A stretch of DNA of 64,000 bases, taken from assembly GCA_039190745.1 (NCBI GenBank), contig JBCCXZ010000012.1, positions 1-64,000 of the forward strand. Direction: 5' to 3'. Source of the DNA: Planctomycetota bacterium (lineage in GTDB: Bacteria; Planctomycetota; Planctomycetia; Pirellulales; Lacipirellulaceae). The position numbers were made by a program, and so were the translations under genes. Every line of letters starts with the position of its first letter. Within the stretch, counting starts at the first letter, position 1. Under the pieces are notes generated by a model. The model searched no databases. It saw nothing but the letters and a program-made list of their open reading frames with translations, and was not told the DNA's origin. Positions 5,409 through 46,578 of this stretch are shown here, one piece after another.

Positions 5409-5882
5409 TTACCGCTCGGCCGACTGGTAGGCCGCCTGCGCGGCCCGGTGGTTGGCGGTGATCGCCGGCGCCAGCCGGGTGAGAAACTGCCGCGCGTCAA
5501 CGTACCCGGGCGCCACCTCCAGCACGTCGCCCGCTGGCGAGACGACCAGCGAAGTGGGGAACCCCTGCACGCCTAGCTTCTGGGCCAGCTCCGCGTAGTC
5601 CCGCGTGTGGGCCAGCACGGTCACCGCGTTGCCCAGCAGCAGCCGCTCCACCCGCGGGTCGGAGTAGGTCTCCTGGAGCATCTTCGTGCAGTAGCCGCAG
5701 TGGTCGGTCGTGAACATCACGACTAGCGGCCGGCGCTGGGCGACGGCGGTCGCCCAGGCGGCCTGCACCGTCCGGTGGCGGAACAGCGGCCCGCGGTAAG
5801 CGTTCGGCTCGACGGCGCCCACGGGGCGGCACACACTGAGCGCGAGCAGAAAGACGATGGCGGTGCGGCGGGCGGCGGTCAT
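5409..5882 (-). CDS. exported thioredoxin-family protein (CGYC)
   Basis: Signal peptide, RPLVVMFTTDHCGYC, GVQGFPTSLVV. Start set at the ATG at 5882. Confidence 0.8.
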   Translation of the reverse strand: MTAARRTAIVFLLALSVCRPVGAVEPNAYRGPLFRHRTVQAAWATAVAQRRPLVVMFTTDHCGYCTKMLQETYSDPRVERLLLGNAVTVLAHTRDYAELAQKLGVQGFPTSLVVSPAGDVLEVAPGYVDARQFLTRLAPAITANHRAAQAAYQSAER

Positions 5883-6028
5883 GACGGGCTCGCGGGGACT
5901 CGGGCTGCGCGGCGGGGACAAGACACTTGGGGACAAGAACACTTATCGACGCCTGCGACACCCGCTCACTGTGAGGCGAGGCACACTGCCCCGAAATCCT
6001 GGCGGATAAGTTGTGAGCAGCGGCACAC

Positions 6029-6496
6029 TCAGCGGGTCGCCGTCGCCGCGGTCTGCACGGCAAGGTTCGTCTTGATCTTCCGCTTGAACTGCTGCGGCTC
6101 GATGTAGCCTTCGAGCTTCGCGAGCACCTTGTTGTTCGTGCCCACCAGGATCGTCGTCGGGTACCACTTGATGTGCAGTTTGCCGACCAGTTCCGCGTCG
6201 CGGTAACGGTCGACCGACACCGTCTCGAACGAGTCGTCCACCAGTTGCGTCACCTCGCCGCTGCCGTAGGTCTGTTCCAGCATCCGCACGCAGTGGGCGC
6301 ACTGCGGCATCGAGACATAGATCAGCACCGGGCGGTTGGACTTCTGCGAGGCCCGCCAGGCGTCCTGGTAAGTGCGGTGCCGGAACAGCTTGGCGTTCGG
6401 GCATTCCTCGGTCACTGTTTCGGCGGACCGCGCCGAAGAACCGACCAAGACAAAGAGGGCGGCCAAAGCCGCGATTCGACAGTTCACGTTGCGCAT
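6029..6496 (-). CDS. exported thioredoxin-family protein (CAHC)
   Basis: Signal peptide, RPVLIYVSMPQCAHC, IKWYPTTILV. Paralogue of the neighbouring gene. Confidence 0.8.
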   Translation of the reverse strand: MRNVNCRIAALAALFVLVGSSARSAETVTEECPNAKLFRHRTYQDAWRASQKSNRPVLIYVSMPQCAHCVRMLEQTYGSGEVTQLVDDSFETVSVDRYRDAELVGKLHIKWYPTTILVGTNNKVLAKLEGYIEPQQFKRKIKTNLAVQTAATATR

Positions 6497-6702
6497 AGGG
6501 ATGCACCTTGCCGGGGGGAGGGGGCGTGCCGGAGCGTGCTAACCCCTCGTATCGACCCCGCGGCGGGGCGTTCCCGCGAAGAATTCAGCCCGGGCGCTTA
6601 TCCCGCACCAAGCCCATAGCCTTGAAGAGCCGGCGCGCAACCGCAGCCCGCACAACCCGAACGGGACAACCCGCAAGACACGAAACGCTCAGCGTGCGCT
6701 TT

Positions 6703-7251
6703 TTAGACAGCCGCACCGCTCTGACGCGCCATCTGAACGCCGACGAAGCCGGCACGCGCCTTCATACAGGTACTCAAGAAAGACTGCGGGTGAGCCACGC
6801 CGGGCAGCCGGAACGTCTCGACGTCGCCGTTCTTGAAGACCAAGTCGGCCGCCTTGTACCACGCCTGCCCCGGCTGCTGCTCGGGCTCGATCGAGTCGAA
6901 CCGATCGAGCGAGACGCTCCGCTGCTCGCCACCTCCAAACGGCTGCTCCACCAGCACCCGGCGGTTCGTGAGCCGGTAGCGCAGGCACCACGGGTTCGGA
7001 ACCCCGGCCACCACAAACGGCAGCTTCGGCACGAGCATGTGGAAGTACATCGGCAAGATCGCCGGGATCGAAACCAGCGCCATGATCCGACCGAACGTGA
7101 CCGGAATCCCCAGCAGGTTGATCCCGACTTCGCTCTCGTAGATTCGCCCCCAAGTGCAGCCGTAGCCCGTCGCGGCGAGCGACGGCCAAGTGACCATCAC
7201 GGTGGCTTCTTTCTCGGTGGCGGGGACGACCCCGGGAATGGCTTGACCCAT
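6703..7251 (-). CDS. bacterial PH domain-containing membrane protein
   Basis: TM segment followed by RYRLTNRRVLVE, typical of bPH domains. Confidence 0.65.
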   Translation of the reverse strand: MGQAIPGVVPATEKEATVMVTWPSLAATGYGCTWGRIYESEVGINLLGIPVTFGRIMALVSIPAILPMYFHMLVPKLPFVVAGVPNPWCLRYRLTNRRVLVEQPFGGGEQRSVSLDRFDSIEPEQQPGQAWYKAADLVFKNGDVETFRLPGVAHPQSFLSTCMKARAGFVGVQMARQSGAAV

Positions 7252-7354
7252 CGGGTGATTTCTCAAACTGCGAGCTGATAATCTGGCGAGTGCGGACGGC
7301 CCACAATCGGCCGACCGCCATGGCTTGAAAACTAACAGCTACGCCCGGGGCTGG

Positions 7355-8368
7355 CTAGGCCCGCGGGGATCGGCCCGGCCTGCGAGCTCCCCAGAGCCCC
7401 GTCGCCAATGCGATCAGCACCCCGCAGCCGGGCTCGGGAACAGTCGAGATCGCCGCCGCCGGAGGCGGCGAGGACGCACCGACGGTGCCGGCAATATCGG
7501 ACCCGAACTGTCGTTGCAGTTCCAGGAAGTCCTTAACCGAGATCTCGTCGTCCCAGGTGGCGTCACCCGCCTGCTGCAGCGCCGCACCGCCGACGGTGCC
7601 AAAGCCTGTCTCCAAAATCGCCAGATCGGCGGCGTCGACCGTCAGGTCGCCATTGAAATCGGCAGAGAAGTCGACCGTCAGGTCGTCGACCACGGTATCC
7701 GCCCAAGCCTGAGCGTCGGCTAGGAGCGCCGCTGGCGTGCCATTCGTGCTGAACAAGACGAAGAAGGGTTTGCTGTTATCCAAATTGTGCATCCGGTTAC
7801 GGAGGGCGCCGAAATAGATCCCGTCGGCCGGGGCATTGGGCGTGCTTAGGTCTGCCACCGCCCAATCGCGGTGCTCGTGGAGCAAACCATCTCCGTCGGT
7901 TTCATTAATGATGCCCCCCGTCACCAAATCCGGGGTGGCGAAAACCGGGTGGTCCACTTCATCCTTGTCCCTCAAAGCCATGGCGTGGCCCGCCGGCGGC
8001 ATGCCGAACTCGACAGAGTCGAGCCCGTCCCAATAGAAGAGGTTCGAGACGACGCCGTCGATCTTCATCGGCAACCAGTCCCATTCCAGAGCCGTATCGG
8101 CCGGGAGCGGCTCTCCCCCGAACGGTAGATCTTCCGCGCCTTCACCAAACGTATTGAAACCGGGGTTGTCGGTAATGCTCGTGGTGCCGCTCAGCAGAAA
8201 CTCGTCGGAGAAAGTGCGTTGGCCAACCGTGAAATCCCCAACAACGTTGAAGAACCCCGTGGTGAGGCGATCGTTCATGTCAAACGCCACGATATCGGGG
8301 AATGCGCTCGCGCCCCGCGACGCAAGGCAGGCTGCGCAAACCAGACCACACAGAACGAAGCGTTTCAT
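7355..8368 (-). CDS. PEP-CTERM exported protein with HEH motif and dockerin-like repeat (candidate metal-binding protein)
   Basis: GGAGG SD, signal peptide, LLHEHRDW, ADFNGDLTVDAADL repeat, C-terminal VPEP + TM + Arg cluster. Confidence 0.8.
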   Translation of the reverse strand: MKRFVLCGLVCAACLASRGASAFPDIVAFDMNDRLTTGFFNVVGDFTVGQRTFSDEFLLSGTTSITDNPGFNTFGEGAEDLPFGGEPLPADTALEWDWLPMKIDGVVSNLFYWDGLDSVEFGMPPAGHAMALRDKDEVDHPVFATPDLVTGGIINETDGDGLLHEHRDWAVADLSTPNAPADGIYFGALRNRMHNLDNSKPFFVLFSTNGTPAALLADAQAWADTVVDDLTVDFSADFNGDLTVDAADLAILETGFGTVGGAALQQAGDATWDDEISVKDFLELQRQFGSDIAGTVGASSPPPAAAISTVPEPGCGVLIALATGLWGARRPGRSPRA

Positions 8369-8438
8369 CTTTGCCTCCAAGCAACGGGTTTAGCTCTGCT
8401 CTTTATCTTCTCTGCTCTCTCAGCGTGCGAACCGCGGC

Positions 8439-8466
8439 GACCCCGGCACGCGGCCGTGCCGGGGTC
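8439..8466. other. perfect 12-bp intercistronic stem-loop
   Basis: GACCCCGGCACG-CGGC-CGTGCCGGGGTC between the two PEP-CTERM genes, with no U-tract. Confidence 0.6.
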
Positions 8467-8492
8467 AACCGCATGTTACGCGTCTCTACAAC

Positions 8493-9320
8493 CTACTTCT
8501 TCCGGTTCCGGCCCAACACGCCAAAGCCCAGGCCGATGGCCAGGAACATGCTCGAGGGCTCGGGCAACGCTGCCGGGGCCGCCTCAAGGAGCTCGACCGC
8601 TTCCTCGTAGAAGGCAAAGTCCTTCATGGCGCCGCTTTCCAGCGTTGCGACGATGCCATCCTCGATAGCCTCTTCAGCAATCTCGGCGTCGTCTTCACTG
8701 AGGATCAAGGCGTCAGACAGCATCACGAGGGTGAGCGGGTCCGATGACTGAGCGATCCCGTCAACAGACACTATCGCCCGAATTGCGTAGACGCCGTCAG
8801 CCGGGACGCCCGGGTCGGCCTCAAGAACGAAGTCCGGGTGATTGTCCATCCCGCCGTTGGCGTTCGTGGTGCCAAAGGCAACCGAGGGATCAAACTCAAA
8901 AGTCGTGCTGGCGGGGGCCAGGCTGAAATCAACGGACCCAGTGCCGTCCCAGAAATACACATTGCTGACAAGGCTGACGCTTACGTCGGCCAGACCGGGC
9001 AGCGCCGAGGCGCCCAGCGTGGCGAGTTCGGCAGCGTCACTGACGCTGTTCAAGCCGAAGAAGCCCGGCTCCTCGGACTTGCGGTCGGCGGGCGGTTCTG
9101 TCGAGCCGAAGGGCGGCACGGAAGCATCAAAGAGGATCGACTCGAAGACCGTCGTAGTCAAATCGAAACTCGGGGTCAAGTTGAGATCCTCGGCGGCGCC
9201 GATCCCGACCTTTCCGCCGAGGTCGACGAGCAGCACGTCGCTGTGGCCGAAAGCGGCGCACGGCAACGAAGCAGCAACCAAAAGTGCGGCAAACTTCGCC
9301 GCGTTCACTCTAGCAGTCAT
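8493..9320 (-). CDS. PEP-CTERM exported protein, paralogue of 7355-8368
   Basis: Signal peptide ending AAFG followed by HSD. Shares PGF, (F/Y)WDG.xSVxF and PADG(I/V)Y with its neighbour. Ends LPEP + TM + RNRKK. Confidence 0.8.
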   Translation of the reverse strand: MTARVNAAKFAALLVAASLPCAAFGHSDVLLVDLGGKVGIGAAEDLNLTPSFDLTTTVFESILFDASVPPFGSTEPPADRKSEEPGFFGLNSVSDAAELATLGASALPGLADVSVSLVSNVYFWDGTGSVDFSLAPASTTFEFDPSVAFGTTNANGGMDNHPDFVLEADPGVPADGVYAIRAIVSVDGIAQSSDPLTLVMLSDALILSEDDAEIAEEAIEDGIVATLESGAMKDFAFYEEAVELLEAAPAALPEPSSMFLAIGLGFGVLGRNRKK

Positions 9321-9478
9321 TAGAACACTCCAATGCAATCAAAGGAAACTAAAACAGGGGTGAATACTCCGCGTCGTCGATGTCAATGCAAGCACGAATC
9401 AACGGTGGGCGGAACTGCATACACAAAAGCTGACTCTCCTGCGGGACACCCCGCAGGAACTCTCATCTCCGATAGCTC

Positions 9479-10237
9479 TCAATTCTGGGGCGGGATCGCG
9501 AAGTTAAAGCCCGACTCACACCACTCCGCGATCTGGTCCGACGCGATCGATTCCACGTGCCCGTCGGCGTACAGATAGTTGGCCGACGTGCTGTTATGCC
9601 GATTGACCGCTACGCTGAGCTGGACCTCCTCAAACACCTGACCGGGCTCAGGAGTCTCGTCTTCAAACCAGTCCTCCGAGTGCACATGATCGAAGTCCCC
9701 GGCGTCCGCCTGCTGCAGCTTCGTAACTTCGAACAGCATGATCGTGCGGTGGGTGGATACCAGGTCGTACAAATTCTCGACAAACCCTTCCGGGCTTTCC
9801 TGGAATCCGCCCCCGAACAGACTCTTCCCGGGAGGCGCTTTCCGCAGGTACCCGTTCATCATGTAACTCGTTCCGGGGGAATTGGTCGTCTTGGCTTTCT
9901 CCAGGAGCTCTACGTCCTCCGGGCAAAACCGCATCTCGTTGACGTTCTCGAGCCAGGGAGCGAGCGTGAAGATCCACGTCTGATCCCGGTCGACCCGGTC
10001 GCCTCCATCAGCATGCCAAACGAAGGGAAACCGCCCGCCGTGGCTGTTCGCGTGCTGGTGGATCGCGAGCCCGATTTGCCGCAGGTTGTTCGCGCACTGC
10101 ACACGCCGAGCCGATGCGCGAGCTGACTGGATCGCCGGCAGCAGCAAGCCGATCAGCACGCCGATGATGGCGATCACCACCAACAACTCGACGAGCGTGA
10201 AGCCAATCGGCTGTTGCTTACGAGCAAGCCTTGCCAC
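9479..10237 (-). CDS. DUF1559 prepilin-like protein with an HVH motif
   Basis: [46 protein letters not shown]-terminal [13 protein letters not shown], internal [10 protein letters not shown]. Confidence 0.92.
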
Positions 10238-10351
10238 AGGAGGGGCTCTCCGAGCTCGCGCAGTCGCTCGTTCGAACGAGCACCGCCAAAGGCGTGAACG
10301 GGACAGATACAGCGGGCAACCGACGCCGCCGCACGCAGAACGGCCGAGAAC

Positions 10352-10849
10352 TTAGCCGAGTGCAGGCGGGCCGCGTGCGGGGTACTGCAACGCGAGCCGC
10401 AGCGGCTCGGCAACGTCGGACACCGGCGGCTCGTGCGGAGCCGACCAGAAAGCAGCGGGCACTTCGACCCGCTGCTCAAGAACCCTCGCGAGCGAGAGCA
10501 GCGAGCATAGAGAGCAATCGTCGCAACCTTCTAACGAAACCTGGGCCAAGAGAGCCGGGTCCGAAGAAGGCTCTTCACTCGTGCTTCGGGGAGTTGCCGG
10601 TTGGCCGTGGCCAAAAGGACAGTCGCTGCAGCCACACAGCGAAGCAGACGAGCCCGATTCGTTGCCGCCGCCGTGGTGGGTGCTGTGATGGTGGATGCCG
10701 TGGTGGATGCCCGCCAGTCCGTGCAGCCCATAGCCCAAAGACGCAATACATGCATAGATCCCAATTAGGGACCATACAAGAATCGGCGATGAAGGGCGGG
10801 GAGACACGAGGCCGACGGGAGTAGAAGAACGCAGCGGGCGGGGGGACAA
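10352..10849 (-). CDS. DUF2946-like leader protein (TM segment, His-rich, CxxC, C-terminal ARGPP); start uncertain
   Basis: Hydrophobic segment, GIHHGIHHHSTHH, CGCSDC, CDDCSLC, ends YPARGPPALG*. Confidence 0.7.
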   Translation of the reverse strand: MSPRPLRSSTPVGLVSPRPSSPILVWSLIGIYACIASLGYGLHGLAGIHHGIHHHSTHHGGGNESGSSASLCGCSDCPFGHGQPATPRSTSEEPSSDPALLAQVSLEGCDDCSLCSLLSLARVLEQRVEVPAAFWSAPHEPPVSDVAEPLRLALQYPARGPPALG

Positions 10850-10883
10850 AGACTGCCTGCGAACAGAAGTTCACGACACGCCG

Positions 10884-10912
10884 AGTCTATGCGACCGGGG
10901 CCCGAGGGTCAA
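10884..10912 (-). promoter_or_regulatory. sigma70-type promoter for the leader-DUF1559-PEP-CTERM operon
   Basis: Minus strand TTGACC-N17-TAGACT. Confidence 0.65.
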
Positions 10913-10920
10913 ATCGTTTC

Positions 10921-10935
10921 TGCAAATCAATTGCA
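10921..10935. promoter_or_regulatory. candidate Fur-family (Zur-like) operator TGCAAATCAATTGCA
   Basis: TGCAA-N5-TTGCA palindrome, differing by 1 nt from the site at 25039 next to the Fur-family gene. Confidence 0.75.
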
Positions 10936-24476: not shown

Positions 24477-24920
24477 CTAGCCTGACTCGCAGTGACCACA
24501 GTGGCCGCGGATCATAATCTCGGTGACAGTACCTAGCTTCTCCCGCCGACCGCCTCGCGAAGGCTTAATCTGAAACGAATAATCCTCCAGGCAGGTCAGC
24601 CGACCGCAATCGACGCACATAAAGTGTGGGTGGGTAAACTCCGACTTGCTATCCGCACCTCTCAGCTCAAACCGTCTAGTATGATCCCCTAGGTCAAGCC
24701 TCGTCACGAGGCCAGCGTCCGCGAGCTCGTTCAAGCAACGAAAGAGCGTGGACTGATCGAACCCGAAGTCGCTCAGGGATTCGACGACTTCGGCGTGGGT
24801 CATCGGGGATGCCTCCGACGCCAGCAGCCTCAGAACCGCCACCCTTGCGGCAGTGGCGCGCAGGGCCACGTTCCGGAGGGTCTGTTTCGCCCAAGTTGCG
24901 TTTTTCTTGGGGAGCTTCAT
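24477..24920 (-). CDS. Fur-family transcriptional regulator (Zur-like by context)
   Basis: LRATAARVAVL, STLFRCLNEL, HPHFMCVDCG, GHCGHC. Confidence 0.9.
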   Translation of the reverse strand: MKLPKKNATWAKQTLRNVALRATAARVAVLRLLASEASPMTHAEVVESLSDFGFDQSTLFRCLNELADAGLVTRLDLGDHTRRFELRGADSKSEFTHPHFMCVDCGRLTCLEDYSFQIKPSRGGRREKLGTVTEIMIRGHCGHCESG

Positions 24921-24978
24921 GCAATCTTCCTGCGGGACGAGAAGACTTTTTTAGAGCTTAGCCAAGCGCCAGCCCACT

Positions 24979-24993
24979 TGCAATTGCATTGCA
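24979..24993. promoter_or_regulatory. candidate Fur-family operator TGCAATTGCATTGCA
   Basis: TGCAA-N5-TTGCA in the divergent fur/COG0523 intergenic region. Confidence 0.75.
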
Positions 24994-25038
24994 CTTGCTG
25001 ATTTCGCCGTTTTGCCAAGACCATCATACCCGCGCTAT

Positions 25039-25053
25039 TGCAATTCAATTGCA
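25039..25053. promoter_or_regulatory. candidate Fur-family operator TGCAATTCAATTGCA
   Basis: Perfect 7-1-7 palindrome overlapping a possible -35 (TTGCAT) of the COG0523 gene. Confidence 0.8.
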
Positions 25054-25134
25054 TTAAGGTAGCTTGCGTTTAGATATTGTCCCATTAGGGATATAACTTC
25101 CGTCCAGAGCGAGCGATTCATCAGCGCATTGCCC

Positions 25135-26379
25135 ATGCAGAAATCACTCCCAGTCACGGTCCTTTCCGGCTTCCTCGGCGCCGGCAAGACAACGGTCCTC
25201 AACCACGTGCTCGCCAATCGATCGGGGCTCCGTGTCGCGGTGATCGTCAACGACATGAGCGAGGTGAACATCGACGCCTCGTTGGTCCGCGGCGGTCAGT
25301 CGACCCTAAGCCGCACCGAAGAGAAGCTCGTCGAGATGACGAACGGGTGCATCTGCTGCACGCTCCGCGAAGACTTGCTCCAAGAGGTAGCAGAACTAGC
25401 CAGGGACGGCCGCTTCGACTACCTGCTGGTCGAGTCGACCGGCATTAGCGAGCCGCTGCCGGTGGCAGAGACCTTCACGTTCGCTGACGAAGAGGGCGAC
25501 AGCCTGTCCGACGTGGCTACGCTCGACACGATGGTGACCGTCGTGGACGCCGGCTGTTTCCTGAGCGACTTCGGTTCGTCCGACGATCTGGTCGATCGAA
25601 AGATGGGGCTTAGCGACGAGGACGAACGCAATGTCGTAGACCTGTTAACCGATCAGGTTGAGTTCGCGAACGTGATCCTGCTCAATAAGTACGACCTGAT
25701 CGACGAGCCGGACAAGCTGATGCTGCTGGGCGTGCTGCGGAACCTCAACCCGAAGGCGCGGATCATCGAGACCCTGCACGGCAAGATCGACCCCGGAGCC
25801 ATCATGGGGACCGGGCTCTTCTCGATGGACGAAGCCAGCGCCCAGCCCGGCTGGCTGGAGGTGCCACGCGGCGAAGAGCAGCCCGAGACCGACGAGTACG
25901 GCATCACGAGCTTCGTCTACCGCGCCCGCCGGCCGTTCCACGCGGCCCGATTGTGGGATCGACTCAACCAGGAAGGCGGCATCCTGGCGGGCGTCCTGCG
26001 GTCGAAGGGGTTCCTCTGGGTCGCCTCTCGGCACGACTACGCATACGTCTGGGCCCACGCGGGGGTCTCGGTGCAGTTGAACCCAGCCGGCTTGTGGTGG
26101 GCGGCGGCGCCCGACGACGAGTGGCCCGAAGACACTCCCGAAAACGCCGAGCTGCTGGAAGATATCCGCAGCGAGTTTGATGACCCATTTGGCGACCGAC
26201 GCCAAGAGATCGTATTCATCGGCATCGAAATGGACCGCCCGGTCATCGAGTCGATGCTGGAAGACTGCCTCCTGACCGACGAAGAGCTTGCATTCGGACC
26301 GGACCGGTGGGTCGATTTCGAAGACCCGCTGCCCACCATCGAGTGGCAGGACGGGGAGCCGATCGAGGAGAACCTGTGA
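25135..26379 (+). CDS. COG0523/CobW-family G3E GTPase metallochaperone
   Basis: [63 protein letters not shown]. Confidence 0.95.
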
Positions 26380-26978
26380 GTCGTCTGGAGTCGATAGCGC
26401 CGGAATCGATTGAGAATGAAGCCTCCGATCACGGTACGGCCAACCCCTGGGCGGACCGGGCGGGGCTTGTAGCCTCGGTGGCGTGCGCCATCCATTGCGC
26501 GGCGATGCCGCTTGTGATCGGCTACCTGCCGATGCTTGGGTTGAGTTGGCTCGCGGACGAGTCGTTCCACAAGGTCATGGCACTGGTTTGCTTTGGCCTG
26601 GCGGCGTTGGCGTTCTTGCCGGGGTGGCGCAGGCATGGGAGCCTCGCCCCGGTGCTGGTTGGATCGACCGGGGTGGTTCTGCTGGCGGTCGCGGCCTTCG
26701 GGCTCGAATGCGATGGCTGCGCGACCTGCTCGGAAACTAGCCTAGCGGCCGCAGAAGAGCCAGTTTGCAGCGCAACGGATTGTGCCCATTGCGCAGAAGC
26801 AGAGCCGGAAACCGTGGGCGAAGCCGCGGCTGTCGGCTCGATCGCGTGGTTTACGCCGCTGGTAACTCCACTCGGGGGGGTGCTGCTCGTTGCCGGGCAC
26901 TTGACGAATCACCGGAAATCGTGCGCCTGCTGCGGAAAAGGCTGTCCGCATGATTCCGAGGCGTCTGCCGAATCATAG
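26376..26978 (+). CDS. MerC-domain membrane protein with a Cys-rich insertion
   Basis: [37 protein letters not shown] overlap with the GTPase stop. Confidence 0.85.
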
Positions 26979-27065
26979 CCGAAAATAGACGGCCTTTTTG
27001 CACCCAGTTCCTCGCCCAGGCAACCTCCCAGGCGCTGTGAAAAGCCTTATTCTTCCTTGCCTAGA

Positions 27066-27098
27066 AGGCTCTGCTGCAACACAATTGTAGTAGAGCCT
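27066..27098. promoter_or_regulatory. extended palindrome containing operator TGCAACACAATTGTA (27075-27089)
   Basis: AGGCTCTGCTGCAA-CACAA-TTGTAGTAGAGCCT. The core has 1 mismatch to TGCAA-N5-TTGCA. Confidence 0.65.
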
Positions 27099-27107
27099 AA
27101 TCTACTT

Positions 27108-27539
27108 ATGCACCGCATTCTCAACAAAACCGCCGCTTGGTTAGCACTAGCGCACGTTGTGCTAGTAGGTGGTCTCGGTACGGGCCTGCACGCCTTGCTA
27201 GGCTGCGAGCATGGGTTGACCGAAAACTGCTCCGCCGCCTGCTGTGTGTCCGCCAAGTCGACGAGCGCTAGCTGTGAAGACTGCGTCTACTGCAGGCGGG
27301 CGGCTGAAAAGCAAAACAGCAACGACCAGCAAGAAGAAACCCTCGTCGCCGATGCGGGCCAGTGCTGCGGCGGTTGCGCCGTCTGCGATCTGCTGGCCCA
27401 GTATCAGAGCGTGACGCCTTTCGCCGTCGAGCCGCTCGCGATCGAGTTGGCCTCGGGCGAAGCGCCGATACAGCACGAGAACGCGGTGATCGCCGCCGCG
27501 ATCCGTCTGTCCCATTCTCGCGGCCCACCCGTGGCTTGA
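27108..27539 (+). CDS. DUF2946-like leader protein (TM segment, Cys-rich, CxxC, C-terminal SRGPP)
   Basis: N-terminal hydrophobic segment with GLH, CEDCVYC, CCGGCAVC, ends SHSRGPPVA*. Confidence 0.75.
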   Translation: MHRILNKTAAWLALAHVVLVGGLGTGLHALLGCEHGLTENCSAACCVSAKSTSASCEDCVYCRRAAEKQNSNDQQEETLVADAGQCCGGCAVCDLLAQYQSVTPFAVEPLAIELASGEAPIQHENAVIAAAIRLSHSRGPPVA

Positions 27540-27590
27540 CCTTCGTTGCCTTCGCTCCGAAGGCTCGTCCGTTCAGTGCCGCTCTGCCAT

Positions 27591-27605
27591 TGCAACACTC
27601 TCGCA
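27591..27605. promoter_or_regulatory. candidate operator TGCAACACTCTCGCA
   Basis: One mismatch to TGCAA-N5-TTGCA, upstream of the first permease. Confidence 0.5.
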
Positions 27606-27654
27606 AGGAGTTGTGCGCGGGCACGCGGCGTCTCCGCCCGCTTATGGGTCACAG

Positions 27655-28809
27655 ATGCCAATCATCCAAGAGTTTTGCACCGCGTTCTGTGCGGTCCTGC
27701 TTGAGTCCGCGCCGCTGGTGGTGCTCGGGTTTGTGATCGCCGGTCTGCTGCACGAATTCGTGCCCGACAAAATTCTGCGGCGTGGTGTCGCTGGGCGTAG
27801 CCTGGCGCCTGTGGCGCGCGTCGTGGGCGTTGGCGCACTGCTGCCAATTTGCTCGTGCAGCACGATTCCACTGGGAGTTGGATTGACCCGGAGCGGCGCA
27901 TCGATCGGCACCGCCCTGGCGTTCATGACCAGCTCGCCGGCGATCTCGCCGGTTACGGTGGTGCTCGGCTGGGCTGTGCTAGGGCCCATGCTGCTGGGGT
28001 GGTATAGCCTGGTGGCGGTCGTGGCGGCCGTCGTGATTGGGCTCGTGGGCAACCACTGGCTCGGCGAAGTGCCCGAGCCAGCGAAAACCAAGTCCGCCTG
28101 CTCCTGCAGCTGCGGCGCCAATCCCCCAGCTGCCAACAAGCTGTCGAAGGCCCTCCGCTGGTCGTTCGACGAACTCGGGACAGACCTCAGCGGATCGCTG
28201 CTGCTGGGCCTCCTCGCGGCGTCGCTCATCCTCGTGGCCTTGCCCGAAGGCATAGTGAGCGGCTGGCTCGCCGAGCCGAGCTGGACCGCGATGGCCGCCG
28301 CGGTGGCCGTCTCACTGCCCGCCTACACCTGTTCGGTGCCGTCTCTGTTGATCGCCGGCAGCCTCTTGACCCGAGGGGTCGACCCGGGGGTGGCCGTGGC
28401 GTTCCTGATCGCCGGCCCCGCCACCAACCTCGGTGAGCTGAACGCGATCCGCGGGGCAATGGGCTCTCGAGCCGCCGCGTTCTACGGCGGTTCGCTGATC
28501 GCGATCGCGCTGGCGGCGGGCTCCGCGACGGCGTGGTTGCCAGAGGCCGCGGTGACGACGCCGCACGCCCACGCGGGCCACGACCACGGGCACGCCCTGG
28601 AGGCGGTCGTGCTCTCCGGCGAAGGCCAGGTATCGCTTAGCTCGACTCCACGCTGGCGTTGGTTGTTCGCGGGGTGCATTGCGGTTCTTGCTGTCCGCTC
28701 GATGCTGCGTTGCATGACGGCCGCGCACAAACACGGGCAAGACACGAAACACAAACCAGCCGCTGAGCCGGCCGGCGCGCCGCAACTCTACGGAGTCGCC
28801 ACGAAATGA
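27655..28809 (+). CDS. DUF318/ArsP-like permease with His-rich loop
   Basis: LLPICSCSTIP, AFMTSSP, YTCS, AFLIAGPATN, HAHAGHDHGH. Confidence 0.85.
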   Translation: MPIIQEFCTAFCAVLLESAPLVVLGFVIAGLLHEFVPDKILRRGVAGRSLAPVARVVGVGALLPICSCSTIPLGVGLTRSGASIGTALAFMTSSPAISPVTVVLGWAVLGPMLLGWYSLVAVVAAVVIGLVGNHWLGEVPEPAKTKSACSCSCGANPPAANKLSKALRWSFDELGTDLSGSLLLGLLAASLILVALPEGIVSGWLAEPSWTAMAAAVAVSLPAYTCSVPSLLIAGSLLTRGVDPGVAVAFLIAGPATNLGELNAIRGAMGSRAAAFYGGSLIAIALAAGSATAWLPEAAVTTPHAHAGHDHGHALEAVVLSGEGQVSLSSTPRWRWLFAGCIAVLAVRSMLRCMTAAHKHGQDTKHKPAAEPAGAPQLYGVATK

Positions 28810-30080
28810 GCCGACTGTTCACGAGCACGACCCGGGCGCCGCGGCCGCGAACCAAGCGTTCGTTGGCGGATTGGCTGAAGTGGGTCGCCCTCGAAGACCA
28901 TTGTGAATGGGCCAACCGCTACGTGGCGTGGCTGAAGACCCCGCTCGGCGTCCTCCTGGTCGGGGCATTTGTCTCGCTACTCAGCGGCCTGTTCGTTGCG
29001 CCGCAAGGGTTCGCGCTGCTGGCCGGCATCGTGATGGTCATCGCGGTTGGGCTCGCGTGGCCGTGGATCGCAATGCGGGGCATTCACGCGCAGCTTGAGT
29101 TCGCCTCTCGGCGAGGCCGTGAGGGAAAACCAACGGTCGCCAAGTTTGTTGTCAGCAACCGGTGGCCCTGGCCAGTCTGGGGACTCGCTGTTGACGACCC
29201 GTTCACTGCCGACTCCTCGGAAGCGGCGGCACTGGCCCGCATCGACGGCTGGTCGCGGGCAACCTTCGATTGCACGTTCACTCCCTCAATGCGGGGCGCA
29301 TACCCCCGGAAGAGTGTCCTCATCGGCACTGCCTTCCCTTTCGGCCTCTGGCGGGCATCGCGGCCTGTGAAGTCGGAAAAGCGTCTTATCGTTTGGCCGC
29401 AGACGTTTTGGCTCCCGCCGCTGGGCGACAGCAGCAGCCGCGTCGACTGGCGAGGCGTGCTCTCAGAAGACCGCGCAGGCGCGGAAGGCTTCCGGCTCGG
29501 CACGCGAGAGCATCGGCACGGCGATACGCTCCGCGACGTGCACTGGGCCAAGAGCGCACGCTACGACCGACTGATCGTGAGCGAACGCGAGGCTTCGGTT
29601 GTCCCTGAAATTGCCGTGTTCGTAGATACCGACCCAGCGAGGCACTCAGCGGCGGGCGGCGACTCGACCCTCGAGTGGTCGCTGCGCATCGCGGCGAGTA
29701 TCTGTGAGTCGGTGGTTGAGAAACAGGGGGGCGTTCAGCTTTGGCTAGGGAATAAAAGGGTCTGTGCCCACTCGACCGAACTGCACCTGCAGCGGCTTTT
29801 GGATGAAATCGCTCTGTTGCATCAGGACGGCGCGGAATCGTCACAATCCGGCGGCGCACCGCAACTCAGCAACGCGCCCGGCATCCGCGTCTCGATCGGC
29901 ACGCACCTGAGCCCGATCCGAACCAACCGGGCGATTGTCTTGAGCGGCTATGGATTCGGAGGAAAACAAGAGCGGGACGACATCAACGGCTGGATCGTTG
30001 TCGACACGCCCGAGGACGTAGCCGACCAGATTCTCAAAGGCTGGCGGAACGGCACGCGGAGGGTCAGCCGTGCCCGTTAG
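28806..30080 (+). CDS. DUF58 domain protein (MoxR-associated)
   Basis: N-terminal TMs, RGAYP...FPFGL, REHRHGDTLRDVHWAKSAR. ATGA overlap with the permease. Confidence 0.88.
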   Translation: MSRLFTSTTRAPRPRTKRSLADWLKWVALEDHCEWANRYVAWLKTPLGVLLVGAFVSLLSGLFVAPQGFALLAGIVMVIAVGLAWPWIAMRGIHAQLEFASRRGREGKPTVAKFVVSNRWPWPVWGLAVDDPFTADSSEAAALARIDGWSRATFDCTFTPSMRGAYPRKSVLIGTAFPFGLWRASRPVKSEKRLIVWPQTFWLPPLGDSSSRVDWRGVLSEDRAGAEGFRLGTREHRHGDTLRDVHWAKSARYDRLIVSEREASVVPEIAVFVDTDPARHSAAGGDSTLEWSLRIAASICESVVEKQGGVQLWLGNKRVCAHSTELHLQRLLDEIALLHQDGAESSQSGGAPQLSNAPGIRVSIGTHLSPIRTNRAIVLSGYGFGGKQERDDINGWIVVDTPEDVADQILKGWRNGTRRVSRAR

Positions 30081-33338: not shown

Positions 33339-33965
33339 GTGTTGCCAATAAGACTAATCCACAGATTCTGCCTGTTTACCGCGACTTCGGTTTGCCTCGC
33401 GTCGCTCGCCGGCTGCGGAACCAGCGGAGAGAGCGATTCCGAGCACTCGCACGGCCACGAGCATGACCACGACCACGGTCACAGCCACCGCCCGGAGTCG
33501 CTCCACGAAGCGGTCGCAGAGCTCGAAAGCCTTAGCGAGGCCATCCGGACGGCCATCGTTGACGGCGATCCGAAGGACGCCCACGACCCGCTGCACGAGA
33601 TCGGATATCTGCTCGAAGCGATCCCGGATGTCGCCGCAGAGACGGACCTGCCAGAAGAAGAATGGAACGCCGTGAAAGCCGCGAGCGAGCAGCTGTTCGA
33701 TGCTTTCGCCGAGATCGACAAGACTTACCACGTCGAGGACGGAGACAAGCAGGCGGTTTACGAAGACGTCTCCGCTGGTGTAGACGAGGCCATCGAGGAA
33801 ATCCGCTCGCGGCTGCCGCTCACTGGCGAGAAGCCTGATGCCAGTGACCACGATCACAGTGACCACGATCACGACGGCCACAGCCACGACGACGGCCACG
33901 ATCACGGTAGCGGGGACGAAGGCGAGGCCTCCGGGTCGGATGAGCGAGCCGAGGACTCGGAATGA
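33339..33965 (+). CDS. His-rich lipoprotein (candidate metal-binding protein)
   Basis: Lipobox SLAG-C, HSHGHEHDHDHGHSH, helical core with AHDPLHE, second His/Asp tract at the C-terminus. Confidence 0.8.
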   Translation: MLPIRLIHRFCLFTATSVCLASLAGCGTSGESDSEHSHGHEHDHDHGHSHRPESLHEAVAELESLSEAIRTAIVDGDPKDAHDPLHEIGYLLEAIPDVAAETDLPEEEWNAVKAASEQLFDAFAEIDKTYHVEDGDKQAVYEDVSAGVDEAIEEIRSRLPLTGEKPDASDHDHSDHDHDGHSHDDGHDHGSGDEGEASGSDERAEDSE

Positions 33966-45510: not shown

Positions 45511-46578
45511 TTAACGCCGGCCGCGTGTTCGGGTCTTCAAGGCGGTGCACTCCGGATCGTCGATCTCGTCCATCGCCAGCGGCGGCCCCTTGATCGTGGA
45601 GAGCTCCTGGTAGAGTTCAAAATCAATGTCTTCGGTCAGGAACTCTATGTGTGCGTCACCGTAAGCAAAGTTTGCGCCACCAGGATGTCGGCTCGCGAAA
45701 GCCCCATTGACCTCCGCAGGCCAGCTGCCAACTTGTTTAGCGTCCACGCCAGGCGGAGTATTCAGAGCCACATCCGTTACGCGGTAAGTATCCAAGTACC
45801 GGTGCCCGTAGCTCCAAATGTTGGAGCCCTCAAACGTGTGATTCTCAATAGTCTCGCCCATCGAGATCGTGTTGCTTGTGCCATCCTCGACGTTCCTGAT
45901 CGCAATCGTGCTCGCGCCTAGCGGGCTGTTGTACAGGTGCAGCCCTGTGTTCTTGTGCTTGACCATGCAGGCGTCCACGACGAACCCGCCGTTGACGCCT
46001 CGGTGACCGGCAACAAACGCGTAGGACCCGGTTGCGGGCGGCGGATCGTACCTGTCCAAGTACTGCTCGACCTCGGTGAAAGGCTCAGAGTCATCCGACG
46101 GACAAACAAAGATCTGTGGGCGCGTGTTCATCGCCTGGAGTCGCTCTGGGGTGGCCCACACGCCGGACGAAAACTCCCCTGCCGGCCAGATACTTTCATT
46201 GTCGTAGATATCGAGCTGATTGAACAACGCATCTTGTTCTAGGAAAGGCAGCAAGAGTACAAACCCGCTCGCGCCCGATCGGAGTTCGGGCGTGTTCCAC
46301 GGCAGCAAGTAAAAGTCACCGGACGAGTCGGGCCCCAGACGGGCGTGCACGTAATGACCCTTCACGCCCTCATGGTTCATGTCCGCCAGGGCGAGGTTCT
46401 TGAGGTTGTTCACACAGCTCATCCGCCGCGCAGCCTCGCGGGCAGACTGTACCGCCGGCAGCAGTAGCGCCACCAACACGCCGATGATGGCGATCACCAC
46501 AAGCAGTTCGACGAGCGTAAATGCCCGCAAACGGGCGGGGAGACATTGACAGCGATTGCCGTGGTGGTGGCGGAACAT
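45511..46578 (-). CDS. DUF1559 prepilin-like protein
   Basis: [63 protein letters not shown]. Confidence 0.93.
   Translation of the reverse strand: MFRHHHGNRCQCLPARLRAFTLVELLVVIAIIGVLVALLLPAVQSAREAARRMSCVNNLKNLALADMNHEGVKGHYVHARLGPDSSGDFYLLPWNTPELRSGASGFVLLLPFLEQDALFNQLDIYDNESIWPAGEFSSGVWATPERLQAMNTRPQIFVCPSDDSEPFTEVEQYLDRYDPPPATGSYAFVAGHRGVNGGFVVDACMVKHKNTGLHLYNSPLGASTIAIRNVEDGTSNTISMGETIENHTFEGSNIWSYGHRYLDTYRVTDVALNTPPGVDAKQVGSWPAEVNGAFASRHPGGANFAYGDAHIEFLTEDIDFELYQELSTIKGPPLAMDEIDDPECTALKTRTRGRR

Follow-up and report, generated by a model that had tools for sequence, protein, structure and literature searches.

A leader–DUF1559–PEP-CTERM gene cassette of Lacipirellulaceae as a candidate zinc-capture operon with two layers of control

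DUF1559 is among the largest uncharacterised protein families of Planctomycetota and is scarcely mentioned in the literature. What could a DUF1559 protein do when its gene lies between a leader peptide of the metal-sensor type and the genes of two surface proteins? This question is raised by positions 7355-10935 of a 64,000-nucleotide stretch of DNA (the window) from a Planctomycetota bacterium of the family Lacipirellulaceae (GenBank assembly GCA_039190745.1, contig JBCCXZ010000012.1, positions 1 to 64,000), where an earlier note made from the sequence had proposed a metal-acquisition operon. The answer developed here is an operon for zinc capture at the cell envelope, controlled both by a Zur-like repressor and by a translation-arrest leader, a reading to which, taken as a whole, we give an even chance. 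The genome under study is a 3.9-Mb assembly of 125 contigs, 95.5% complete (G000); a genome of the same genus (G001) was used for element-by-element comparison, and the 20 best loci with DUF1559 orthologues, with about 5 kb fetched on each side, made up the set for comparing cassettes.

The cassette and its putative zinc regulator

According to the calls of open reading frames (ORFs), the locus consists of four co-oriented genes on the minus strand. The leader (10352-10849; 165 amino acids from a TTG start, with an alternative GTG start at 10807) is followed by a short prepilin-type DUF1559 gene (9479-10237; 252 amino acids) and by two genes that we call PEPA (8493-9320; 275 amino acids from the likely ATG at 9320, within an ORF of 8493-9338) and PEPB (7355-8368; 337 amino acids from the likely ATG at 8368, within an ORF of 7355-8380). 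The earlier note had described a minus-strand unit in the order operator, promoter, leader, DUF1559 and two sister proteins, and all these features are present.

The order leader, short DUF1559, PEPA and PEPB is kept in 15 of the 20 related loci. Among the remaining ones, a contig ends after PEPA in one, the parts are reordered in two, the PEPB-like ORF is without a recognisable tail in another, and in the last (L032) the leader is missing and neither PEPA nor PEPB is clear. An ORF ending in RGPP was found upstream in 19 of the 20 loci, being immediately upstream and co-oriented in 18 and one gene further up in L031, which is a paralogous cassette of the genome under study with a different gene order (contig C5, 43923-49410; L031:424-5914). 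Full-length orthologues of the short DUF1559 protein (best E ≤ 1e-50) occur in 19 of the 24 other genomes of the family, and weaker matches only in the other five, one of which is just 66% complete; the PEPA family is present in all 10 sampled genomes of the family and in 45 of 151 genomes of the order. No recurrent neighbour of the cassette was found among 87 flanking ORFs in 18 loci, and because the flanking genes change between genera, the four genes travel as a unit. Conservation of gene order and of the His motifs in relatives had been named beforehand as a test of the proposal, and both are conserved, the latter as described below for each protein.

The operator dyad TGCAAATCAATTGCA (10921-10935) stands 8 nt upstream of the -35 hexamer and follows the consensus TGCAAT-N3-ATTGCA. 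Only 5 sites within one mismatch of this consensus exist in the whole genome, the one of the cassette included, and the reversed pattern, used as control, gave 0; the looser pattern TGCAA-N5-TTGCA was found 6 times against about 1.25 expected. The operator proposed for this cassette is real, and all 5 dyad sites are intergenic or at a gene start. Two perfect dyads, 60 bp apart (24979-24993 and 25039-25053), lie in a 208-bp intergenic region between the gene of a Fur-family, Zur-like regulator (24477-24920, minus strand; PF01475, 43.8 bits), one of only two Fur-family genes in the genome, and that of a ZigA-like COG0523 GTPase (25129-26379, plus strand; cobW 181 bits, CobW_C 86 bits, and 589.1 bits on the NCBIfam ZigA model, whose cut-off is 600). 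Another site, on contig C5, is located at the start of a thioredoxin-like ORF and heads the paralogous cassette, whose string includes a DUF1826 gene and a second RGPP leader. The RGPP leader within the ZigA-like string (27057-27539, plus strand) has a CAVC 44 residues before RGPP and lies between a MerC-like gene and an ArsP_1/SO_0444-like permease gene, and all three RGPP leaders of the genome sit in dyad-headed gene strings. The stretch 24477-28809, which has the regulator on the minus strand, the two dyads and then, on the plus strand, the ZigA-like GTPase, a MerC-family protein, the RGPP leader and the permease, looks like a zinc-homeostasis gene string, as judged from its gene content.

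The strongest evidence that regulator, dyad and cassettes belong together comes from the comparison of 16 loci with regulator orthologues, taken from 15 genomes. A dyad with at most one mismatch accompanies the regulator gene in 7 of these loci, and one with at most two mismatches in 3 more, and a ZigA-like GTPase adjoins the regulator in 4 of the 16. In G008 the regulator gene is divergent from a pair formed by a short DUF1559 gene and a PEPB-like gene, with three dyads in between; in G009 the regulator, a dyad-like site, an RGPP leader and a DUF1559 gene follow one another on the same strand; and in G012 an RGPP leader and a permease come straight after the regulator. The cassettes themselves gave a partly compatible picture. 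In 21 cassette loci (224 kb in total) 13 dyads with up to two mismatches were found, 7 of them within about 200 nt upstream of the leader, namely in the window, G001, G010, G006 (two sites), G025 and G017, this last with two mismatches. Perfect dyads number 3, 1, 2, 0 and 0 in five relatives, and control sites 0, 0, 0, 1 and 0; G010, a genome of 6.4 Mb, has its sole perfect dyad in front of the orthologous leader, and others in relatives adjoin an orthologue of the regulator or of the oxidoreductase described below.

Zinc is put forward as the metal because the regulator and the dyad adjoin both the ZigA-like gene and DUF1559 cassettes, and the choice of zinc made in the earlier note gains from the same facts, since the dyad is common to the regulator/ZigA-like region and the cassette, and the regulator adjoins DUF1559 cassettes in relatives. 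The regulator is probably Zur-like, given its neighbourhood beside ZigA-like and DUF1826 genes; sequence alone does not separate Zur within the Fur family, as the authors of the study on the zinc-uptake protein ZepA say of their own cases (PMC10957091). DUF1826 itself appears among Zur-regulated COG0523 clusters in a figure legend (PMC2770081). On these grounds the dyad is a probable binding site of the Fur-family regulator, and the cassette, whose control by zinc starvation is well supported, probably takes part in a zinc-starvation response.

Two of the dyad-associated regions deserve a separate description. A perfect dyad on contig C43 is located about 220 nt upstream of the gene of a 377-residue oxidoreductase of the FAD/NAD type that ends in CCGEECVC (region 27958-29326). 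This pairing is kept in G001, with the dyad 64 nt upstream, and in G027 the oxidoreductase gene is divergent from the regulator gene, so the C43 oxidoreductase is a candidate further member of the regulon. In the C5 string, the perfect dyad is followed by the thioredoxin-like ORF (CPRC), DUF1826, a 73-residue ORF and an RGPP leader of the His class (HACP variant), and then by a PEPB-like PEP-CTERM protein, a short DUF1559 protein and a PEPA-like protein; an AT-rich stretch just upstream of this leader, TTATGATTATC, resembles a classical Fur box.

The sigma-70 promoter claimed for the cassette, TTGACC-17-TAGACT (10884-10912, minus strand), stood in part. Its match to the consensus is at the level of chance (1 found, 0.7 expected), but both hexamers, together with an AT-rich element upstream, are conserved in G001, where the spacer has diverged. 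The two stem-loops announced between the genes were found exactly where they had been placed, one between DUF1559 and PEPA (9437-9458, minus strand; 9-bp stem, no U tract) and the other between PEPA and PEPB (8439-8466, minus strand; GC-rich 12-bp stem), this second intergenic region folding better than its shuffles (z = -3.8; 0 of 200 fold as well). Both are kept in G001 with changed sequence and are not found in G010; being conserved within the genus only, they were rejected as core parts of the cassette.

The leader as a putative arrest peptide

The leader opens with a basic N-terminal stretch and a membrane helix, after which come a GYGLH motif, a run of His, CGC and CxxC motifs and, at the C-terminus, an RGPP with ALG and the stop codon behind it. 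The 19 orthologues share a common plan, made up of a hydrophobic helix ending in G-x-x-L-H, a variable His/Cys-rich stretch, a CxxC, a spacer of about 44 residues, RGPP and a tail of 2-6 residues. Inspection of the alignment, from which the topology was judged, showed that in all 19 a basic N-terminus leads into some 20 residues of hydrophobic sequence, and the sole invariant positions were G39, H43, C112 and the R-G-P-P residues. Since these protein motifs are conserved across 19 diverged loci, a chance ORF or an artefact of gene calling was ruled out. In the window, the putative metal-sensing CxxC is CSLC (residues 112-115; 10505-10516, minus strand), located 43 residues before the predicted RGPP arrest motif (residues 159-162; 10364-10375, minus strand), which is separated from the stop by three residues; the distance between both motifs is 43-47 residues in 14 loci plus the window.

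A hidden Markov model of the leader, searched against 1.84 billion cluster representatives, retrieved 1633 of them at E ≤ 1e-3 and 274 at E ≤ 1e-10. In a family set of 166 proteins, RGPP is present in 163, RAPP in 1 and neither in 2, with tails mostly of 2-6 residues, and the CxxC stands 41-45 residues away in 125 members, exactly 44 in 97. Another 38 are without CxxC and carry a His-x-Cys or His-cluster variant. The motif H-X2-9-H-[FY]-H, of the ZepA type, was found in 32 of the 166 leaders (shuffle mean 3.5, maximum 9), and 31 of these 32 are without CxxC. This suggests, from the sequences of the family, that a His-cluster sensor class, with this motif and a single Cys (HxCPLL), exists alongside the CxxC class of 123 members, and the metal or the redox state that is sensed may differ between the two.

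The scans of the cassette proteins gave no Pfam or NCBIfam match for the leader of the window. When 144 members of the family were scanned singly against Pfam, 51 matched DUF2946 (PF11162) at E ≤ 1, with a best E of 1.7e-6, whereas every other family was matched by 2 members at most. By its sequence, the leader is a divergent arrest peptide of the CruR/CutF type (DUF2946-like), in a distant branch and not as a formal member of the Pfam family. The features of CruR and DUF2946 proteins described in PMC9426467 are an export signal, a CXXC, a conserved spacing of about 45 residues and a RAPP located 3 residues from the end; the same source speaks of "a few" DUF2946 genes in Planctomycetes, and its Table S1 names a Rhodopirellula protein. 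For CutF, the 45 residues are described to put the metal motif in the periplasmic vestibule of SecY with the ribosome at the stall site, and CutF-like clusters with other motifs are considered there as probable sensors of other metals (PMC9973294). According to a 2025 survey, RAPP and RGPP cause an especially robust translation arrest, and RGPP readily evolves into an arrest sequence (PMC12992588). The His/Cys-rich RGPP leader of the earlier note has all its listed features, but it is not a new element, belonging to the RAPP/RGPP class of CruR and CutF, so far characterised for copper.

The association of the leader with DUF1559 extends beyond this family of bacteria. In a phylum-wide sample of 401 genomes, in which 9 candidates per genome were scored, the leader was found in at least 9 genomes, a figure to be read as a floor and not as a distribution; of the 9 loci that come from other genomes, 5 have DUF1559 next to the leader, and leader-DUF1559 pairs occur also in other planctomycete families, some of them with RAPP. 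In the source data of the 2025 survey, "DUF1559 domain-containing protein" is enriched downstream of upstream ORFs (uORFs) with RAPP, with 112 cases against 68 for the AAPP control, a 6.5-fold enrichment (PMC12992588). The pairing is already catalogued in these source data and goes undiscussed in the main text, which makes no mention of DUF1559, pilin or zinc.

How the leader would act on the genes downstream was looked for in the intergenic regions. The one between the leader and DUF1559 in the window (10238-10351, minus strand; 114 nt) contains a hairpin, GCUCGUUCGAACGAGC, and a Shine-Dalgarno-like site, GGAGAG, and folds no better than its shuffles (z +0.99). In the 18 loci measured, the distance from the leader to the next gene is 85-250 nt, and the mean unpaired probability of the region from the Shine-Dalgarno site to the start codon ranges from 0.15 to 0.58 across loci. 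A C-rich Rho-loading region was also sought in the leader-DUF1559 intergenic regions, where C/G ratios of 0.68-1.77 were found without any trend. Taking the operator and the leader together, we consider it likely that the cassette is controlled by a Fur-family operator plus an arrest leader.

The kinship of the leader raises the question of the metal. The same architecture could serve copper, or nickel/cobalt in the case of the His-only leaders, with a regulator that senses a signal other than zinc, and part of the evidence goes in that direction and against zinc. CxxC is a classic Cu(I) motif, and a His at or near a free mature N-terminus, as PEPA has, is a typical feature of Cu(II) sites. 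DUF2946, of which the leader family is a remote offshoot (51 of 144 members match), has two characterised members, each of them copper-responsive by way of CxxC or CxxxC. RAPP/RGPP uORFs are found upstream of genes for YcnI, PCuAC and TonB-dependent receptors (PMC12992588), and the permease after the second leader of the window has its best NCBIfam matches in SaoE and in the 'SO_0444 family Cu/Zn efflux transporter'. With respect to nickel and cobalt, the His-class leader of locus L015 stands just downstream of a HupE/UreJ gene, a family that has been tied to these metals for His-only CutF-like clusters (PMC9973294). By contrast, the dyad is common to a ZigA-like zinc chaperone (589 bits) and to the C5 string with its DUF1826 gene, none of CopA, multicopper oxidase, PCuAC, YcnI or CopC was found among the 87 flanking ORFs scanned, and the ZepA zinc-site motif is carried by 32 of the 166 leaders, far from the shuffle mean of 3.5. 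On balance, a metal other than zinc seems unlikely to us.

A related possibility is a cassette that is induced by metal, as CutO is through CutF, and whose task at the surface is to sequester an excess of this metal or to render it harmless. In CutF, copper prolongs the stall and this switches on the downstream gene, and the DUF2946-like CzcI heads an efflux operon (PMC9973294). Nevertheless, from a Fur-family operator that also serves a zinc chaperone one would expect expression under starvation and not under excess, and the conserved cassette includes no efflux component, in such a way that we regard detoxification as very improbable.

The DUF1559 protein, its surface partners and neighbouring genes

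The genome has 41 DUF1559 matches, and the protein of the cassette fits the profile only in part: it scored 63.4 bits on PF07596 (cut-off 23.3), matching only profile positions 1-62 of 268, and reached 21.3 bits on the prepilin-type N_methyl model PF07963 (cut-off 21.2) and 16.8 on the H-X9-DG model TIGR04294, below the cut-off of 19. Its C-terminal motif reads H214-X10-D225-G226 in the window and has X9 in three relatives. In 18 sequences compared, C105, D108, E170, H184, H214 and H227 are invariant, within the conserved motifs C105-P-x-D108, E170, D183-H184-x-[H/D/E]186, H214 and D225-G-H227. The internal DHVH motif pointed out in the earlier note is present, and its second His (position 186) is a His in 12 of the 18 sequences and Asp or Glu in 6. 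The structural model of the protein (predicted local distance difference test, pLDDT, 79) had pilins, minor pilins or pseudopilins as all of its 12 best structural matches (Z 3.1-4.6), so a pilin-like fold is predicted. The window contains a second DUF1559 gene (45616-46449, minus strand), an ordinary full-length one with 125.9 bits over the whole Pfam profile.

PEPA and PEPB, claimed to be two homologous surface proteins, are indeed paralogues, with 29% identity over 125 residues (E 4e-8). The PEP-CTERM scores of PEPA were below cut-off, with 17.4 against 20.7 on PF07589 and 13.1 against 16 on TIGR02595; PEPB had no PEP-CTERM match, and a VPEP, a hydrophobic stretch and a basic tail were seen in it by eye. 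Among orthologues, 13 of 20 PEPA and 8 of 18 PEPB sequences matched TIGR02595 at E ≤ 10. The genome encodes one exosortase of the EpsH family (192.5 bits; G000:C2:136931-137686) and, by a crude count, about 175 PEP-CTERM-like ORFs. In PEPA the conserved residues are H26 (at least 90%), D28 (invariant), E84-P85-G86, W124, G126, H161 (at least 90%) and Y178, which include the motifs H26-x-D28, at the mature N-terminus, and [H/D]159-x-H161. The signal-peptide cut was placed by the -3/-1 rule, read by hand; in 11 of 20 PEPA sequences H26 comes first after it, and in the others H26 stands 1-5 residues deeper, often with a run of Glu before it. In PEPB, H166 is invariant and H164 is conserved in at least 90%. 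The motifs that the earlier note had seen, HEH in PEPB and, in PEPA, the His after the predicted signal-peptide site (AFG|HSD) plus DNH, were recovered.

PEPA was modelled (pLDDT 88.1; predicted template-modelling score 0.83) as an immunoglobulin-like (Ig-like) beta-sandwich with two helices and a C-terminal anchor. Its best structural match had Z 6.3 and a root-mean-square deviation of 4.1 over 120 aligned residues, and weak PmoB/AmoB matches (template-modelling score, TM, 0.17) were also obtained; YcnI, CopC and ZepA-like folds were not among the PEPA matches listed, an absence that does not exclude them. In the ESM Atlas its nearest entries were planctomycete PEP-CTERM clusters and one proteobacterial cluster at TM 0.56, and profile searches retrieved planctomycete hypothetical proteins only. 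PEPB has a Dockerin_1 match (22.0 against a cut-off of 22.9) for a repeat of the calcium-binding type at residues ~236-300, and a GC-type dockerin model was matched by 6 of its 18 orthologues. The best feature match of the PEPB domain in the ESM Atlas was 'Metallo-mystery pair system four-Cys motif protein' (0.84, below the 0.9 lead level); this identity was dropped, as no PEPA or PEPB orthologue matches such an NCBIfam model at E ≤ 10, and no use of the term 'metallo-mystery pair' was found in the literature.

These folds bear on another explanation, in which the cassette is metal-regulated and moves no metal, its proteins serving for remodelling of the surface or envelope, for adhesion or for a zinc-sparing swap under starvation. 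The fold matches of PEPA are adhesin- and pilin-type Ig domains (CfaB, CssA, PapD-like, cadherin), PEPB has a dockerin-like module, the ~175 PEP-CTERM-like ORFs and 41 DUF1559 matches show both to be general surface-protein families, and zinc-independent replacement paralogues are frequent in Zur regulons (PMC2770081). Nevertheless, the conserved positions of all three effectors are mostly His, Asp, Glu and Cys; a leader of the metal-sensor type of its own, present in 19 of 20 loci, would be unusual for a replacement paralogue; and the precedent of ZepA favours metal handling. We consider such a remodelling role rather improbable. Zinc capture by the effector proteins, suggested by their conserved His/Asp motifs and by analogy with ZepA, is a tentative assignment to which we give slightly less than an even chance.

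Several genes near the cassettes could be accessory to them. Directly downstream of PEPB (5409-7266, minus strand), the window encodes a membrane protein with a bacterial PH domain and two exported thioredoxin-like CxxC proteins, a trio that G001 also has close to the cassette and that G006 has about 2 kb downstream. The thioredoxin-like genes near cassettes, including the one that heads the C5 string, may be a redox accessory that keeps Cys ligands reduced. In L015 (G008) a HupE/UreJ_2 gene, and in L023 (G021) a gene for an outer-membrane porin of the Porin_O_P type, are located just upstream of a His-class leader and on its strand (7685-8962 and 7667-9055, respectively), and both may be local add-ons that complete an uptake route. 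Elsewhere in the window (33339-33965, plus strand), a lipoprotein-like ORF with only a weak DUF6746 match has two long His/Asp-rich tracts, HSHGHEHDHDHGHSH near the N-terminus and DHDHSDHDHDGHSHDDGHDHG near the C-terminus, and looks like a periplasmic metal-binding or metal-buffering protein by its composition.

Proposed mechanism and comparison with known systems

In the operon for zinc capture that we propose, the first layer of control would be the Zur-like repressor, bound to the dyad when cytoplasmic zinc suffices and released under zinc starvation; the same dyad would serve the regulator's own gene, the ZigA-like operon, the paralogous cassette and one oxidoreductase gene. The second layer would be an attenuation of translation or transcription, by homology with CruR and CutF. 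The leader would be a small N-in/C-out membrane protein whose His/Cys-rich part passes into the periplasm as the ribosome comes to RGPP. With about 44 residues between the two motifs, the CxxC would stand at the outer mouth of the translocon when the stall occurs. Metal binding to the CxxC could then lengthen or shorten the stall, in either direction, and so decide on transcription and translation downstream, the switch being either Rho-dependent termination, as in CruR, or the opening of an mRNA structure, as in CutF. As for the effectors, the exosortase would deliver PEPA and PEPB to the cell surface, where the N-terminal His/Asp residues and [H/D]-x-H would serve them to bind zinc, and the membrane-anchored pilin-like DUF1559 protein would receive the metal or relay it toward the inner membrane. 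Their job would be to catch zinc, either on the cell surface or within the periplasm, and to hand it over, with ZepA as the parallel.

A number of observations weigh against this reading. With respect to the regulator, the NCBIfam models that it matches best are those of Fur and PerR, and all the scores fall far short of the cut-offs. The dyad does not overlap the promoter but precedes its -35 hexamer, and the single znuA of the genome has no dyad. Of the co-occurrence of operator, leader and DUF1559 in relatives that the earlier note set as a check, the leader part stood, but 14 of the 20 related loci are without a dyad of up to two mismatches upstream of the leader. As for the second layer, the leader of the window scores 9 bits on DUF2946 (E 3.2), below the gathering score of 23.7, and no conserved hairpin sequestering the Shine-Dalgarno site was found in the 85-250-nt intergenic regions. 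Regarding the effectors, PEPA gave generic matches only among solved structures (Ig-like, PapD-like, cadherin and class-5 pilin); the N-terminal His of PEPB has been lost (FPD) in this genome and in a sister genome; and PEPA and PEPB are without the H-X2-9-H-F/Y-H of ZepA, having instead H-x-D N-terminally and [H/D]-x-H. Finally, no RNA run containing the cassette locus was listed among sequencing runs; the one run listed for it is of DNA from a marine metagenome and may be where this DNA comes from.

The earlier note had also suggested that the cassette takes the place of a TonB-dependent receptor. No receptor barrel of this type was found in the genome (95.5% complete), which agrees with the suggestion, but 14 of 41 genomes of the family carry TonB-dependent receptors, 1-6 each, a further point against such a reading, and because of them the cassette is not a simple substitute for the receptor. 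In a broader proposal, Planctomycetota would have a general system for capture and retrieval that needs no TonB, with pilin-like DUF1559 proteins as the part that spans the envelope. Each short DUF1559 protein would have its own exosortase-sorted surface binders, and each cassette a sensor for its ligand; the present one would be the version for zinc, gated twice, by a Zur-type repressor and by an RGPP arrest peptide that senses the periplasm. We put this forward as a rather improbable speculation; if true, it would explain the tens to hundreds of DUF1559 paralogues per genome and the uptake of scarce nutrients without TonB-dependent receptors.

More immediately, the locus ties a compact DUF1559 subfamily to a metal-sensor leader, to a Fur-family operator common to a zinc chaperone and to two dedicated surface proteins, and in this way a function hypothesis that can be tested at the bench is gained for a very large family without assigned function. 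If the proposal is true, nascent-chain sensing of the CruR/CutF type would be extended beyond copper and beyond Proteobacteria, and one operon would combine a metalloregulator for cytoplasmic metal with an arrest-peptide sensor for periplasmic metal, a combination that we did not find described. The claim that the module is undescribed holds in part: the leader class is known and the leader-DUF1559 pairing is in the 2025 survey data, but neither the effector module nor the link to a zinc regulator was found in print. The search for a print record of a module of DUF1559 and two PEP-CTERM proteins, of its link to a Fur/ZigA regulon or of the double control found none, with the proviso that the supplements of PMC9973294 and PMC12992588 may bear on it. 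No publication dealing with DUF1559 together with copper was found either, and the literature on Planctomycetes, Zur, zinc limitation and PEP-CTERM yielded the ZepA paper only, whose main text has no DUF1559 and no pilin (PMC10957091).

Among known systems, type IV pilins and the pseudopilins of type II secretion systems, such as T. thermophilus PilA4 and V. cholerae EpsG, resemble the DUF1559 protein in the prepilin N-terminal motif and the long N-terminal helix. Differences are the low Z scores (3.1-4.6), a globular part specific to the subfamily and the absence of assembly genes nearby.

A known relative of the control region is the operon CruR (Bp2923)-bfrG-bp2921 of Bordetella pertussis, as it is described in PMC9426467. 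There too the first gene encodes a small protein for export, in which about 45 residues separate a CxxC from R-x-P-P and 3 residues remain to the stop; a long intergenic region comes next, and then the genes of envelope proteins for metal acquisition. The cassette differs from it in having RGPP instead of RAPP, an extra His run and CxC, and an added Fur-family operator; its genes encode DUF1559 and two PEP-CTERM proteins, whereas those of the CruR operon encode a TonB-dependent transporter and a PepSY_TM protein, and its metal is probably zinc, that of CruR being copper. CutF-CutO-CutG of Rhodobacter capsulatus, following the account in PMC9973294, resembles the mechanism predicted here in having a co-translationally exported nascent chain that senses metal, a motif about 45 residues from a proline-rich stall and an action in cis. 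CutF, by contrast, uses CxxxC and a motif of the PPP type, unfolds a hairpin over the Shine-Dalgarno site and turns on a detoxifying oxidase under copper excess.

The first layer of control resembles the Zur-COG0523 regulons of the ZigA/YciC type presented in PMC2770081, where a Fur-family regulator adjoins a COG0523 GTPase with palindromic boxes in between, and where DUF1826 also appears, as it does here in a dyad-headed string. The dyad TGCAAT-N3-ATTGCA was matched to no published Zur box, and the putative regulon described here differs in including cassettes gated by an arrest leader.

With respect to the effectors, the best parallel is ZepA (All3515) of Anabaena sp. PCC 7120, a Zur-regulated protein of zinc uptake with a signal peptide, a PEP-CTERM, an Ig-like domain and a mature N-terminus rich in His and acidic residues, which has a homologue in Lacipirellula limnantheis (PMC10957091). 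PEPA and PEPB share with it the signal peptide, the PEP-CTERM-like tail, the Ig-like domain and a Zur-type box upstream, whose specificity for zinc is presumed here, and homologues of ZepA, which that study defined by at least 35% identity and 75% coverage, are found in the same planctomycete family, near Fur-family and COG0523 genes. The motif H-X2-9-H-F/Y-H is present in none of the 175 PEP-CTERM-like ORFs of the genome, and some PEPA orthologues carry H-[FS]-H-P. ZepA is the product of a single gene, for which neither a leader nor a DUF1559 partner has been described, and by the likeness of these features it would be a functional analogue of PEPA and PEPB.

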